Assembly (NCBI GenBank): GCA_024400135.1
Contig: JAKSNE010000001.1
Location: 1-53,642, forward strand
DNA: 53,642 nucleotides
Reading direction: 5' to 3'
From: Paludibacteraceae bacterium
Lineage (GTDB): Bacteria > Bacteroidota > Bacteroidia > Bacteroidales > Paludibacteraceae
This document shows positions 7,696-41,896 of this stretch, piece after piece. Below the pieces are notes generated by a model. The model was not told the origin of the DNA, made no database searches, and saw nothing but the letters and a program-made list of their open reading frames with translations. Within the stretch, counting starts at the first letter, position 1, and every line of letters begins with the position of its first letter. Position numbers and translations under genes: made by a program.

Positions 7696-9725
7696 TGGAT
7701 TTGTTTTCTGAAATAGAGAATCCCGAACGGGACGAGATCATCGCCTTGCGCAAAGAGTTAGAGGAGCAGAACTACAAGTATTACGTTCTCAATGCTCCCA
7801 CTATGTCCGACCGCGAGTTCGACGAGAAGATGCGTCGTCTGCAAGACCTTGAGAAACGCTATCCCGACATGGATGACCCGAAAAGTCCGACCAAGCATGT
7901 GGGTAGTGACCTCACCAAGAAATCGGGTTTTGCCACCATCACCCATCGCTATCCGATGCTCTCGCTTGCCAATACCTACAGCCGCGAGGAGGTGGTTGAC
8001 TGGTTGAATAAACTGCCCGCTGATGCCGAGATCTGTTGCGAACTCAAATACGACGGACTCAGTATCTCTCTTTGGTACGAAGACGGGCAACTCACCCACG
8101 CCGTCACCCGAGGCGATGGCACACGAGGCGACGATGTGATTGACAATATCAAGACGATAGCGAATATCCCTTGGACTATTGACAACAAAGCTTCCATCGA
8201 ACTTAGAGGCGAGATACTCCTTCCTTGGGCAAACTTCGAGAAACTCAATAAGGAGCGCGAGGCACAAGAGGAACCGCTCTTTGCCAATCCGCGAAATGCC
8301 GCCAGTGGTACCCTCAAACTGCAAGACCCGCGCGAAGTGGCTCGACGCGGGTTGACGTCGTACCTATACTATATGTTAGGAGATAACCTTCCCGAAGACA
8401 ACCACTTTGACCGCTTGCAAGCCGCCAAGCGATGGGGCTTCCCCATCAGTGATGCTGTCCGCGTATGCCATGGTATAGACGAGGTGATGGCGTTCATTAA
8501 CTATTGGGACGTTGAGCGTAAGAACCTGCCCGTAGCTACCGATGGTATCGTACTCAAAGTGAATAATATCGCCCAACAAACCGAACTCGGTTATACCGCC
8601 AAGACCCCGCGTTGGGCAATAGCGTATAAGTTCGCTGCCGAACGACAACAAACGACCTTGCGTAAGATCACCTACCAAGTCGGTCGAACGGGCGTTATCA
8701 CGCCGGTGGCGAACCTCGACCCGATACAACTCAGTGGCACCGTCGTGCAACGTGCCACACTGCATAACGAAGACTTCATTCGCCAACTCGGTATCGAAGA
8801 AGGCGACCAAGTGTGGGTAGAGAAAGGTGGCGAGATCATTCCCAAGATCGTCGCTAAAGTCACTAATTCTCTAAACTCTAAACTCTCAACTCTAAACTTT
8901 ATAAAAACCTGCCCCGAATGCGGCACGCCCCTCGTGCGCGTCGAAGGCGAAGCGGCTTGGCGTTGTCCGAACGACATCACCTGCCCTCCGCAGATCAAAG
9001 GAAAGATGGAGCACTTCGTCAGCCGTAAAGCCATGAACATTGACGGGCTGGGCGAGGAGACAATAGACCTACTCTTTGAGCAAAACCTACTCCACTCGAT
9101 TGCGGATATCTACCACCTCACTCACGAGGACTTAGCCAAACAAGAGCGCCTTGGCAATAAGTCCGCCGATAATATCTTAGCCGGTATTGAGAAGTCCAAA
9201 ACCGTACCTTGGCACCGCGTGCTCTTTGCCCTCGGAATCCGTATGGTGGGCGAGACAACCGCCAAGAAGATTGCACGCGTCTTCCCCTCTATCGACCAAC
9301 TGCAATGGGCTACGAAAGAGCAACTCACTGCCATCGAGGACGTGGGCGACCAAATAGCCGAAAACATCATCGCTTACTTCAACGACATACGCAACCTCGA
9401 TATCGTGCGTCAACTGCAAGAAGCCGGAGTGACCCTTGCAAGCGAATCCGAAAACTCCGGGACTGCCGGAAATTCCGGTTCCCAACTTGTCGGCAAGACC
9501 ATCGTTATCTCGGGTACGTTTGAGCACCACTCGCGCGAGGAGTATAAGGAGATGATCGAAGCCCATGGCGGTAAGAACAGCGGTTCGGTTAGCAGCAAGA
9601 CGTCGTTTATCTTAGCGGGCGAAAACATGGGTCCCGAGAAACGCAAGAAAGCAGAACAATTAGGAATAGCACTCGTCTCTGAAGATGAGTTTTTACAAAT
9701 GATAAACTATGTTGGAGAATCTTAA
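7692..9725 (+). CDS. ligA: NAD-dependent DNA ligase LigA
   Basis: 677 aa. It carries the adenylation motif CELKYDG, an OB fold, the Cys4 Zn finger [21 protein letters not shown], HhH repeats and a BRCT tail. ATGA overlap with the upstream nuclease gene. Confidence 0.95.
8868..8897 (+). repeat. CTCTAAA-type heptamer array inside ligA
   Basis: tctctaaactctaaactctcaactctaaac encodes [11 protein letters not shown] immediately before the Zn finger. Confidence 0.9.
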
Positions 9726-10179
9726 ACAATGGGTATTTGAGCGCGCTATTCGCAAGCAGAAACCGCGCCAACCAAGACTAAGGAACTACGGCAGCATGCG
9801 CAACGTGCTCGTTTTGTACAAGGAGTCTGACGGAAAAGACGCTTCTATCGAACGACTTCAGAAACAACTCATTGCCGATGGCAAAGAGGTCACCCTCTTT
9901 GGTTTGAGCGAACAGACCAAAGTCAATTTCTTTGAGTGTCCCCCTAAACAGATGGTTGCTGACCTGCAGCGGATTCACTACGACCTGCTCATCGACTTGA
10001 CGTTGGAGCCTTGCCGCCCGATGCATTACCTTGCTCTTTATGCCAGTGCGGATTGCAAGGCAGGACTGGAACTCACCCACGGTATTCACGATTTTATGAT
10101 TGCCGTCTCCCGGCAGGTGACTCCCACCTTCCTCTTTGACCAGATCCTCCGCTACCTTAAGATGATTAATAGTATATGA
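9709..10179 (+). CDS. Hypothetical protein
   Basis: 156-aa ORF that overlaps the ligA end by 17 nt and the dapA start by 4 nt, consistent with an operon. I recognise no family. Confidence 0.5.
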
Positions 10180-39310: not shown

Positions 39311-41844
39311 AATATTATTTCTATGGTTTGTTTGCCGGGTTGATAAGCCACTATTGTCGGCTTGTCCGCTTTCTGCTTGTGGTTCGGATTGCGAACGATA
39401 ATCTCGTATTCCGCCTCGCGCCACTTGCGATACACCGTAAAGCCTTCCATATCCGCCGGTAAGCAAGGATCAATGATGAGTTCATTGAACCCGGGTTGGA
39501 TACCTAAGATATATTGCGATACCGTAAGCCAGTTCCAAGCCGCTGTACCCGTGAGCCAAGAGTTCTTGCCTTCGCCCGGTTTGGCAGCATCCTTACCGGC
39601 TACCATCTGACAATAAACGTAGGGCTCAATCTTGTGCAAGTCTTGGTCTTTTATCCATGCAGGAGCAATCTTCGTATAGTGTTCCCAAGCGTCGTTACCA
39701 CGCCCCGCTTTGGCTTCGCCAATGATTACCCACGGATTATTGTGACAGAAGATACCGGCATTCTCTTTGTAGCCTGCCGGATAGGAAGAGATCTCGCCCA
39801 TCTCCACGTGATAGGTTGTGAAAGCAGGATGGTTGAGCACCATGCCGTGAGGGGTATCGAGATAACGTTTGCAACTGTCGAGGGCTTTATCTACAAGTCC
39901 GTCCTCTTTGCCTATTTCCGCCATTGTGCAGAAGCCTTGCGACTCGATGAAGATCTTGCCTTCCTCGTTCTCGTTGGAGCCAATCTTATTGCCGAAGAAA
40001 TCGTAAGCGCGTAAGTACCACTCGCCGTCCCAGCCGTACTGCTTAACGGCTTCAATCATCTTATCTATCTCCTTCTGCGCTCTTACTGCTTCCACTCTCA
40101 ACTTCTCAACTTGTCCTTTGTCCTTTGTCCTTGCTCTTTGTTCTAATAACGAAACATAGTCTCTCCCGCAGAACACGAACAGACCGGCAATCATCAACGA
40201 TTGGGCCTTACTGCCTTCGGTTTTGTTCTCGGTGGTTTGGAAGCTCTCATTCGGGTCCCAACTGAAGCAGTTGAGATTCAGACAGTCGTTCCAGTCGGCA
40301 CGACCGATCAAGGGTAGATGTTGCGGTCCGAGGTTATTGACTACGTGGTCAAAACTGATACGTAGGTGTTCGAGTAGGGTCACTTCCGTTCCGGGTTGGT
40401 TATCGAAAGGCACCATCTCGTCCAAGATCGAGTAGTCGCCCGTCTCTTTGATATAAGCCACCGTACCAAAGATCAGCCACATCGGGTCGTCATTGAATCC
40501 GCCTCCAATATCGTTGTTTCCGCGTTTGGAGAGCGGTTGGTATTGGTGGTAGCAGCCGCCGTCGGAGAACTGTGTAGAAGCAATATCAATGATTCGTTCG
40601 CGGGCACGCTCGGGTATCTGGTGTACAAATCCGACGAGGTCTTGGTTACTATCGCGGAAGCCCATACCACGACCGATACCACTCTCAAAGAACGAGGCGG
40701 AACGGCTGAAGCAGAACGTGATCATACATTGGTATTGGTTCCAGATGTTCACCATACGGTTGAGGCGTTCGTCCTTACTCTCGACCGTAAACGTACTGAG
40801 CAATCCGTCCCAAAGCGTGCGGAGCTCAGCAAAAGCCTTATCCACCGCTTCCACGGTAGCGAAACGCTCAATAAGCTCGTGAGCGCGCGCCTTATTAACT
40901 AAGGTCACGTCGCTATCTTGAGAACTAATCAGTTCGCCTTTGCGTTTACGCTCGATATCGGCAGCACAGAACTTGTTATCTTGCTCGTTCTCTACATATC
41001 CGAGCAGGAAGATAAGGTCTTGGCTCTCGCCGGGTTGAAGAGTCAGTTCCACGTAGTGAGACGCAATCGGACTCCAACCATGAGCCACGGACATAGACGG
41101 CTTGCCGTTCATCACGCATTGCGGATTGCTAAAGTCGTTGTATAAACCGATAAACGACTCGCGGTCGGTATCGAACCCCTCCGCCTTGCGGTTGGCAAGC
41201 GCATAGAAAGCGTAGTGATTCCGCCTCTCCTTATATTCGGTCTTATGGTATATACTAGTGAACCCTACTCCTCTACCCTCTACTCCCCTACTCCCATTTT
41301 CAACTTCAATCTCCCCCGTGGACCAGTTGCGTTGGAAGTTCTCCATATCCGTCGAGGCATTCCAAAGGCACCATTCGGCAAAGCTAAAGATCTTCAGATT
41401 CTTGACTTGCGAATCGTGATTGGTGAGGGTCAGTTTATGCACTTCTGCCCACGTATGCAAGGGTACAAAAGTGAGCAAGGAAGCCTCTACCCCATTCTTC
41501 GTTCCCGTGATGCGGGTATAGTTCAAGCCGTGGCGGCACTCATAACTATCGAGCGGGGTCTTACATGGTTTCCATCCGGGATTCCAAACCATGTCGCCAT
41601 CCTTGATATAGAAATATCGACCGCCGGCATCCATCGGCACGCCGTTATAACGATAGCGGGTGATACGGCGGAACTTAGCGTCCTTACAGAAGGTGTAACC
41701 ACCGGCTGTATTGGATATCAGTCCGAAGAAATCTTCGTTACCAAGGTAGTTTATCCACGGGAAAGGGGTTGCAGGATTAGTTATCACATACTCCCTGTTC
41801 TTATCATCAAAAAAACCATATTCTTTCATATCAAAAACTTTCAA
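39307..41844 (-). CDS. Glycoside hydrolase family 94 phosphorylase (cellobiose phosphorylase-like)
   Basis: N-terminus [62 protein letters not shown] closely resembles known cellobiose phosphorylases. 845 aa. Confidence 0.9.
40091..40146. repeat. Composite heptamer array (ACTCTCA units plus TTGTCCT x3) inside GH94
   Basis: tccactctcaacttctcaacttgtcctttgtcctttgtccttgctctttgttc encodes [18 protein letters not shown]. Confidence 0.85.
41263..41295. repeat. CCTCTAC-type heptamer array inside GH94
   Basis: ccctactcctctaccctctactcccctactccc encodes [11 protein letters not shown]. Confidence 0.8.
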
Positions 41845-41896
41845 CTATAAACTATTAAACTAATCGGCTTCTCTAAACTCTAAACTCTAAACTATT
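41838..41896 (+). repeat. Intergenic heptamer array between GH94 and GH5, including 3 pure CTCTAAA units
   Basis: ctttcaactataaactattaaacta...ctctaaactctaaactctaaacta. The pure units are at 41871-41893. Confidence 0.9.

Follow-up and report, generated by a model that had tools for sequence, protein, structure and literature searches.

CTCTAAA-type heptanucleotide repeats in frame in conserved genes of a Paludibacteraceae bacterium, and turnover of repeat families at the same sites

Short repeated DNA is known from bacteria in several forms, one of which is the cyanobacterial STRR family with its heptameric unit. The Rickettsia palindromic elements (RPEs) described by Ogata and colleagues in 2000 are reportedly palindromic, approximately 100–150 bp in length, confined to Rickettsia and not tandem. 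The very small dispersed repeats (SDRs) of heterocystous cyanobacteria, described by Elhai and colleagues in 2008, are said to lie in genes and nested in each other, with no recognisable transposase and with apparent recent spread. Here we describe a family of CTCTAAA-type heptanucleotide repeats in a 53,642-nucleotide stretch of a Paludibacteraceae genome (GenBank assembly GCA_024400135.1, contig JAKSNE010000001.1, positions 1–53,642; hereafter, the window), where short arrays lie between genes and, in frame, inside conserved genes such as ligA and dapA. We consider it probable that these are lineage-wide, heptanucleotide-periodic dispersed repeats of herbivore-gut Bacteroidales, which are copied between loci and then filtered for reading frame and stop codons. 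An earlier reading of the window from sequence alone (hereafter, the sequence-only reading) had proposed arrival or expansion at the DNA level followed by such filtering, and this core idea is supported by orthologue comparisons and by the abundance of non-coding copies.

Heptamer families have been reported from Xanthomonas (GGGAATC) and Nostoc (GGGGAYT) (PMC4692102), and the TAACTGA family from Beggiatoaceae, cyanobacteria and some Bacteroidetes, including Paludibacter (PMC4679880). Such families are genus-specific, keep their sites and vary in sequence between close species (PMC4692102, PMC4679880). Long simple sequence repeats (SSRs) were the subject of Mrazek et al. (2007), as summarised in PMC4692102 and PMC4679880, and work cited by these two papers attributes the bacterial preference for 7-nt units to the polymerase footprint. 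At the DNA level the CTCTAAA family belongs to this heptameric simple-repeat phenomenon (STRR, GGGAATC/GGGGAYT, TAACTGA). As in those families, one 7-nt unit forms short tandem arrays at many loci with an excess of period 7, apparently mostly between co-oriented open reading frames (ORFs) and near ORF ends or starts, and the sites are conserved while length and sequence vary between close species. The CTCTAAA family differs in that a forward unit capable of stopping all frames lies in frame in the middle of essential proteins by way of variant units, in that a composite form carries a unique core, and in that unrelated families replace one another at coding sites. Forward copies of TAACTGA, in contrast, are confined to the ends of ORFs, and copies of it inside ORFs mostly encode protein termini (PMC4679880), while 89–93% of the Xanthomonas repeats are intergenic (PMC4692102).

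The resemblance to RPEs drawn in the sequence-only reading is apt for the outcome, though not for structure or family. In both cases short repeated DNA lies in frame in conserved genes, gives a tolerated peptide at permissive sites and occurs also as non-coding copies, whereas the repeats described here are heptamer-periodic, non-palindromic and 30–70 nt long, are found in Bacteroidales and can be read through only after the loss of a stop codon. The elements are direct 7-nt repeats of about 65 nt, not palindromes of approximately 100–150 bp. The present element is dispersed, occurs in genes and nests with other small repeats. In its outcome in proteins it seems to parallel the cyanobacterial SDRs; it has another sequence, belongs to another phylum and has arms with a 7-nt period. 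The contingency loci of Haemophilus influenzae (PMC2651432) likewise have short-unit tandem repeats within genes, and there too the unit length is not divisible by three. Those arrays are pure tracts in surface or restriction-modification genes, where they turn the reading frame on and off (PMC2651432). The arrays here are instead imperfect, every 21 nt containing one variant unit; their hosts are housekeeping genes (ligA, dapA), and they keep the frame in all assemblies examined.

The repeat is strongly over-represented in the window. Repeat counts were made over the 53.6-kb window and the fetched comparison loci. In the window a CTCTAAACTCTAAA dimer with up to two mismatches is matched 27 times, versus 0.36 expected from dinucleotide shuffles, and none of 100 shuffles reaches 27. 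Period-7 tandem repeats of at least three units number 11, versus 0.0 in Markov simulations, and the other periods in the same scan are near background. All ten repeat loci that had been picked out in the sequence-only reading were recovered at, or within a few bases of, their initial positions, and Tandem Repeats Finder (TRF) reports period-7 arrays at, or at most 1–2 bases from, most of these. TRF and the scans together place tandem 7-nt arrays of at least three copies at 8869, 10759, 12732, 21315, 28621, 28839 and 41871. The longest window arrays comprise four consecutive units, with TRF giving up to 4.9 copies. The locus at 40091–40110 in a GH94 gene stands as a repeat but is marginal, being made of two imperfect units nearer to an 8-mer. 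Ten of the 12 window arrays are coding (nine sense, one antisense), and array density amounts to about 0.2 per kb of coding DNA versus about 0.4 per kb of intergenic DNA.

Pfam matches confirm the gene identities given earlier: LigA, DHDPS (DapA), YicC, GH31, GlcNAc 2-epimerase (N-acylglucosamine/cellobiose 2-epimerase), MFS and GH94. The USP-like call is less secure; the window ORF has no Pfam match and a weak Usp match is found on its L125 orthologue. Codon-level reading also bears out the recurrent LNSKLSTLN-type peptides in LigA, DapA, YicC and GH31. In ligA (7692–9725, + strand) an in-frame array of four units at 8869–8896 (+) encodes a 10-residue segment in the linker between the OB fold, which ends at residue 392, and the Zn finger, which starts at residue 406. 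The dapA gene (10176–11093, +) carries in frame a full-length composite at 10726–10790 (+; left arm, decayed core AACAACT, right arm; nhmmer E=8.5e-12, model positions 2–66) that encodes KLSTNKLNNYSKLSTLNSTLK. In the USP-like gene, whose real start is at about residue 41 of the listed ORF, a composite at 12687–12766 (+) is formed by a left arm CTTTATCAACTTTTAACTCTCAACTAT, a small GC hairpin core and (CTCTACA)3 CTCTAAA, and encodes LSTFNSQLSPSGATTLHSTLYTLNS. An in-frame array of five units at 21312–21347 (−) encodes TLNSTLSTLNSQ in yicC (20640–21551, −; start probably at 21539). The GH31 gene (26614–29097, −) has two such sites: site 1 (28838–28890, −) is a composite minus 15 nt of core that encodes a 17-residue segment (nhmmer E=1.5e-6), and site 2 (28621–28692, −) is a core-less composite array that encodes a 19-residue segment where the native loop has been replaced. 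By codon reading, both GH31 segments end in an 11-residue sequence of a shared type.

Between genes, the spacer separating the USP-like gene from gmk is occupied by a repeat (13175–13249, +) whose last CTCTAAA unit ends 5 nt before the gmk ATG, these five nucleotides (CTAAT) being themselves repeat-derived. A full-length composite with core ATCGGCT occupies the spacer from the GH5 stop to the GH94 start (41837–41898, +; nhmmer E=2.4e-14), and the array from 41871 does consist of three pure CTCTAAA units, as first read. A CTTTAAA/CTCTAAA-type tract at 35885–35920 (+) runs antisense to the genes through the MFS-to-epimerase spacer and into the epimerase N-terminus, MESLEFK; the epimerase of L013 begins in the same way. 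Two adjacent short arrays at 40091–40132 (+), both antisense to GH94, comprise a weak CTCTCAA-like pair (VEKLRVE) and a clean (TTGTCCT)3, which is (AGGACAA)3 on the gene strand and encodes TKDKGQ.

Since 7 and 3 are coprime, a pure forward array stops all three frames. The proposed erasure of in-frame TAA is confirmed in that TAA is kept in none of the eight in-frame window units, which read TCA (three), TCC (four) or TAC (one), versus 16 of 24 out-of-frame and 4 of 5 non-coding window units (Fisher test of in-frame against out-of-frame TAA, p=0.002 for the window and p=8e-5 with five relatives added). The informative figure is the high retention of TAA in the other two phases, by which the arrays are seen not to be simply stop-free repeats. 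All variant units are A-to-C changes at unit position 5 or 6. The TCC codon is a double change, synonymous with TCA, and is enriched in phase, as would be expected of a second change that is neutral in that phase alone. Stop-free variants (CTCTCAA, CTCTACA, CTCTCCA) account for about 20% of the units in non-coding arrays, and the ORF-compatible block CTCTAAACTCTAAACTCTCMACTCTAAAC is found at more than 120 metagenome loci, 62% of them non-coding. As the variant units and this block are already present in non-coding DNA, the erasure can be selection from standing variation, and loss of the stop need not be a point mutation that follows insertion.

The CTCTAAA strand is mostly the coding strand, again in agreement with the sequence-only reading: every array in ligA, dapA, the USP-like gene, yicC and GH31 is sense, and the two antisense cases are the epimerase N-terminus and the weak two-unit GH94 tract. 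Across the fetched loci, with conservative gene calls, 20 coding copies are sense and two antisense. Intergenic copies have no orientation bias, with 36 antisense and 26 sense between co-directional genes and a further 22 between convergent genes. A sense bias found inside genes only would come from selection inside genes and not from the insertion process, and we infer that it reflects selection on the product or on the mRNA.

Comparison of ligA, dapA and yicC with their orthologues, which the sequence-only reading had called for, was carried out and shows the insert segments to be hypervariable. Among relatives, variation of this kind affects the OB-to-Zn-finger linker of LigA, whose length runs from near 0 to about 40 residues in 120 orthologues, and the loops of DapA, YicC, the USP-like protein and GH31, with one main indel hot spot per protein in the alignments. 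Minimal DapA orthologues are without the insert (P0162 reads 'DLAKGKLLVISGDD'), and 16 residues at its position have no counterpart in solved DHDPS structures. The AlphaFold model of DapA (mean pLDDT 91.3) is a confident TIM barrel in which the insert follows the helix of residues 172–192 with a pLDDT of about 48, residues 195–201 being below 50. The USP-like orthologue of L123 is without 18 of the array-encoded residues. The in-frame copies appear at permissive surface sites, namely the inter-domain linker of LigA, the DapA segment and the GH31 loops.

In the window, repeats stand in place of the native GH31 loops 'HADGTPETY' and 'PQ......Y'. At site 2 the window has a 60-nt array where L159, at 88% amino acid identity, has a repeat-free 27-nt loop, and this is replacement of native loop DNA, not simple insertion. 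The earlier notion of insertion or expansion of tandem CTCTAAA units is upheld as regards the DNA level and has to be revised otherwise, since several arrays are composite, GH31 site 2 is a replacement and several families occur at the same sites.

The alternative that the LNSKLSTLN-type segment is a selected protein linker or motif, with the DNA periodicity secondary, is hardly credible and is already largely refuted. The peptide does turn up in many proteins, and nearly always in the sense frame. However, the same DNA is mostly non-coding, close relatives have different peptides or none at the same sites, out-of-frame units retain the exact TAA-containing unit, and the insert is of low confidence in the model and absent from solved homologues. 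No distant orthologues were found that carry the same residues without the 7-nt periodicity, an observation that would have refuted the sequence-only reading. The LNSKLST-type peptide appears to be a tolerated, probably disordered passenger rather than a functional module.

The most unexpected result is the turnover of repeat families at fixed sites. The loop sites persist across relatives, and the occupying family turns over between genomes that are 80–90% identical; between the window and L121–L125, L159 and L160, the site is conserved and its length and sequence are variable. Where the window aligns with L124 (88% nucleotide identity over 10.5 kb), the larger indels are mostly located at repeats. 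The ligA linker, which carries the CTCTAAA array in the window, has a tandem 16-mer, GCAGCGGTCTTTCAGC, in L124 and three copies of an 8-mer, TCCATCAW, in L122 (92% amino acid identity). The USP-like loop, with its CTCTAAA/CTCTACA composite, also has the 16-mer in L124. In place of the dapA composite, L124 has a CCCTACT-type array; to judge from their peptides, P0146 would have (CCTGAAA)n in which TGC stands for the in-frame TGA, and P0184 and P0213 would have (CTGTCAA)n. The yicC loop, a CTCTAAA array in the window, is occupied in L125 by the 16-mer family (LQRSDLTAQRSYSDSGL). At GH31 site 1 the core-less composite of the window is matched by (TGCACGA)3.5 in L159 and by a full element with a GGACGGCT core in L160. 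P0242 was considered as an 'empty' allele at both GH31 sites and was rejected as such for site 1, where it has a (TGCACGA)n array. The epimerase loop of L160 contains the 16-mer GCAGCGGTCTTTCAGC. Several peptides of other lineages, which show the same device with other units, were matched to units back-inferred from the peptide itself: DNGQWTMDNGQ in the LigA of P0115 to a perfect (GACAATG)n, PETCNLKPETCNLK in the DapA of P0146 to (CCTGAAA)n with the in-frame TGA read as TGC, and KLSTVNCQLS in the DapA of P0184 and P0213 to (CTGTCAA)n.

The spacers of the same region behave similarly. From DUF6913 to dapA and from cstA to the USP-like gene the window has no array and relatives have arrays of a family that depends on the genome, while the spacer from the USP-like gene to gmk is CTCTAAA-type in the window, (GGTAAAT)n in L124 and (CTATCAA)n in L125. 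The operon-spacer families of relatives (CTCTAAA, GGTAAAT, CTATCAA, AGCAATC, CCCTACT and CGTAAAT) reach the start codon. Copy number differs too, L160 having 34 nt more of the same array than the window in the MFS-to-epimerase tract and three more units in an AATTCAA array.

The composite form is approximately 65 nt long and is composed of (CTYTMAA)2–3, CTAT/TAAACTA, the core GACGGCT and (A/T)CTCTAAACTCTAAACTCTCCACTCTAAACTA(T/C); some composites have a small GC hairpin in place of the GACGGCT core, and the right arm (CTCTAAA)n ends in CTA(T/C). The alignment was made with copies from the window, from Horse_feces144 (GCA_024400115.1, a relative at about 88% amino acid identity) and from L125, and a profile built from nine copies was searched with nhmmer. 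Full-length composites in relatives include L018, L029, L066, L101 and L125. At least 12 full copies with a non-periodic core are present in three genomes, and within Horse_feces144 near-identical composites lie at L029, L066, L101 and L160. The intact element of L160 at GH31 site 1 is the window version plus 15 nt, which explains the recurrent ACTA|CTCT junction. An identical 36-mer that includes the TCC unit is shared by GH31 site 2 of the window and the M50 protease gene of Horse_feces144 (L029). The presence of shared non-periodic parts in unrelated genes suggests that blocks have been copied between loci.

These observations bear directly on the possibility that the arrays are purely local microsatellites, generated by independent slippage on chance proto-repeats with no copying between loci. 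This explanation has little chance of being right and is already disfavoured, even though the 7-nt preference across many unrelated units suggests a process set by unit length, array edges decay gradually, relatives differ by whole units (for example by three in the AATTCAA array), and slippage in a 7-nt register has been proposed for bacterial heptamers in work cited by PMC4679880 and PMC4692102. Local slippage does not readily accommodate a CTCTAAA-type unit at ten or more loci in 53 kb (27 matches versus 0.36) and in several Bacteroidales families, the non-periodic core GACGGCT with the same junctions in different genes and genomes, the identical 36-mers with the TCC variant in unrelated genes, or the wholesale replacement of the repeat-free native loop at GH31 site 2.

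Beyond the window, a genome scan with an exact 18-mer, taking one genome per species, returned at least 120 loci. Among the genome matches listed, about 85 of 120 are Bacteroidota, mostly rumen or faecal Bacteroidales (Paludibacteraceae, Prevotella, Bacteroidaceae and Muribaculaceae), to which the termite symbiont Ca. Symbiothrix is to be added. Pure arrays at the genome loci are non-coding, and mixed arrays occur in long ORFs. Other host proteins include PurM, KamA (lysine 2,3-aminomutase), an M50 protease, NqrC, a RecD-like helicase, carbamoyl-phosphate synthase, an RlmL-like methyltransferase and TatD. Viral contigs gave 33 repeat matches among 2.9 million.

At the pattern-selected loci the CTCTAAA repeats are mostly non-coding, and typically make up the whole spacer between co-directional genes as far as the start codon. 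The intergenic copies could conceivably be the functional ones, acting as G-poor unstructured leaders or spacers for initiation in Bacteroidota that do not use Shine-Dalgarno sequences, or as sites for RNA- or DNA-binding proteins; the repeat would then spread through selection for this role, with the coding copies as spill-over. Sense tracts do extend to within a few nucleotides of the ATG at gmk in the window, at dapA in L121, L123 and L125, at the USP-like gene in L123, L124 and L125, and at genes in L018, L029 and L043, and for 13 of 39 co-oriented intergenic arrays the distance from the array end to the following start codon is at most 12 nt. Placement next to starts is also known for TAACTGA, for which a post-transcriptional role has been proposed (PMC4679880). 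On the other hand, intergenic arrays have no orientation preference, unrelated units (including the G-containing GGTAAAT) swap at the same spacer, and the window has no spacer at two junctions where relatives have arrays. An Rfam scan of the window gave no match. Identity at lag 7 over all intergenic DNA of the window is 0.291, barely above that at lag 6 (0.285) and lag 8 (0.281), so that there is no general 7-nt signal; the idea that a 7-nt code pervades intergenic DNA or leaders as a whole was rejected on this basis. A leader function as the primary explanation seems unlikely to us, although such a role and copying between loci are not mutually exclusive.

For the copying and filtering of dispersed repeats that we consider probable, the following course may be envisaged. 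New copies would be taken from arrays already present at other loci of the genome, probably through template switching primed by microhomology, or ectopic gene conversion, during repair or replication. Copies would then grow, shrink and decay by 7-nt slippage steps. In genes, purifying selection would spare only those copies that keep the frame and have a stop-free in-frame unit (TCA, TCC or TAC). The variant units would pre-exist in the non-coding pool, and whole ORF-compatible blocks could be copied from gene to gene.

Several points weigh against this account. The absence of in-frame TAA is forced once an intact ORF is required and is thus partly tautological. As a cause of the sense bias, stop-codon load was rejected, because either orientation needs one stop removed per 21 nt, and by a rough estimate the sense and antisense peptides are of similar hydropathy. 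The in-frame segments are peptides predicted from the DNA. Copying between loci is suggested by shared blocks, and neither an enzyme nor a donor-to-recipient event was observed. Inverted repeats, target-site duplications and conserved unique ends were absent from 227 array flank pairs, in which the edges decay; a classical transposon is not indicated, and a transposition-like step is unsupported. The genome and metagenome matches, of which up to 120 were taken, were selected by exact repeat patterns, which biases the proportions of coding and non-coding copies, including the 174 of 217 arrays that are non-coding at pattern-selected loci. Finally, the window covers only 53 kb, and the comparison genomes are metagenome-assembled genomes (MAGs) or short-read contigs in which repeats can collapse or be misassembled.

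A discrete mobile mini-element, similar to a miniature inverted-repeat transposable element (MITE) or an SDR and moved by a trans-acting transposase, recombinase or reverse transcriptase, is a quite improbable source of the copies. Its attraction lies in the architecture of about 65 nt, with conserved arms, core and 3' end (AACTAT/C), in the many near-identical copies of Horse_feces144, and in the nesting of copies beside other small repeats. However, neither the 227 array flanks nor the comparison at GH31 site 2 revealed the terminal inverted repeats and target-site duplications of a MITE; the flanks consist of decaying periodicity, and the filled and repeat-free versions of site 2 differ by replacement with no duplication. 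Copy lengths vary continuously, no transposase or reverse-transcriptase gene lies within the window, and the exact pattern of the composite core gave no matches in JGI metagenomes. The composite arms are direct 7-nt repeats whose G-free strand cannot form a GC stem, and some cores hold a hairpin of 4–5 bp.

A bolder form of the copying account is that herbivore-gut Bacteroidales have an active copy-and-paste process, possibly enzyme- or RNA-templated, which writes heptamer-periodic mini-elements, formed of arms and a GACGGCT-type core, into spacers and protein loops and time and again overwrites the same sites with the family current in that genome. We regard this as doubtful. If true, it would establish a new class of non-palindromic, in-frame mobile mini-element, and the loops of essential proteins would evolve by repeat replacement and not by point mutation.

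Further repeats accompany the CTCTAAA family in the window. Other heptamer families present are AATTCAA, GGACAAA/TTTGTCC and AACAAGA, the last as an array at 37554–37574. An (AATTCAA)5 array at 29114–29148 (−) lies upstream of the GH31 start and is stop-free in all three sense frames. A GH2 ORF (29024–31006, −) reads through it and runs on for 90 nt past the array (29024–29113), 74 of these overlapping the beginning of GH31 (start at 29097). The GH2 C-terminus may have been lengthened by the array. Within GH2, the tandem 16-mer family GCAGCGGTCTTTCAGC is present in frame in about 3–5 copies at 30337–30420 (−), with peptides that include GLSAQRSFS and LTAQRSYSDSGL. A (TTTGTCY)n array at 34707–34746 (−) lies in the N-terminus of a SASA-family esterase (gene 33299–34771), where it encodes the hydrophobic core of the predicted signal peptide, LFCLLSLVLCPLS; TTTGTCY is the reverse complement of the GGACAAA family that is present also in GH94 at 40111–40132. 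A GC-rich palindrome, CCTCCCCTACAGGGGGAGG, is found at about 28336–28358 (− strand, GH31) within a 24-nt in-frame insertion that the Horse_feces144 orthologue (L160) is without, and the 'PPEEGL...PLFEGVGEV' inserts that other Paludibacteraceae have in the LigA linker seem to be based on a similar class of palindrome.

Degenerate heptamer tracts with units TTTATGM, AAATCAC and ACTAATM lie directly upstream of the starts of yicC (21547–21567), GH5 (gene 25460–26587; tract at about 26590–26630) and MFS (about 37316–37340), and leaders of this degenerate type precede about 8 of 40 window genes. An 11-nt tandem repeat, TCCGCGTGATT, with 3.5 copies and 92% matches, is located at 14078–14115 between gmk and the gene for UDP-galactopyranose mutase. 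The region 25460–43379 contains genes for GH5, GH31, GH2, alpha-galactosidase, esterase, 2-epimerase, MFS, GH26, GH94 and a second GH5; it looks like a mannan/galactomannan utilisation cluster, in agreement with a herbivore-gut origin. A patch of PIN, RhuM, NERD and AAA_14 genes at 18.6–25.5 kb breaks synteny with relatives.

Three features of the system appear to be new: the in-frame presence, in essential proteins, of a heptamer that stops all frames, by way of phase-specific variant units; the composite element with its unique core; and the exchange of repeat families at loop sites that themselves stay fixed. The literature consulted, whose coverage was incomplete and which is thus weak evidence of novelty, contained no earlier account of either CTCTAAA arrays or heptamer arrays in frame in Bacteroidales. 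The findings imply that essential proteins of bacteria can be reshaped by short DNA satellites, time and again in the same small set of loops, and that a repeat that stops all frames can still enter genes through a filter of variant units. In practical terms, repeat segments inflate the apparent divergence and length variation of proteins in Bacteroidales MAGs, and the recurrent low-complexity peptides confuse homology searches and gene calling; the same segments mark permissive insertion sites in LigA, DapA, YicC and GH31. Should a dedicated copying process exist, it would represent a new kind of bacterial mini-element, and if the intergenic copies are translation leaders they would bear on initiation in Bacteroidota that lack Shine-Dalgarno sequences. 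The preference of bacterial repeats for a 7-nt unit is a long-standing question, for which this lineage offers many families and orthologous sites.

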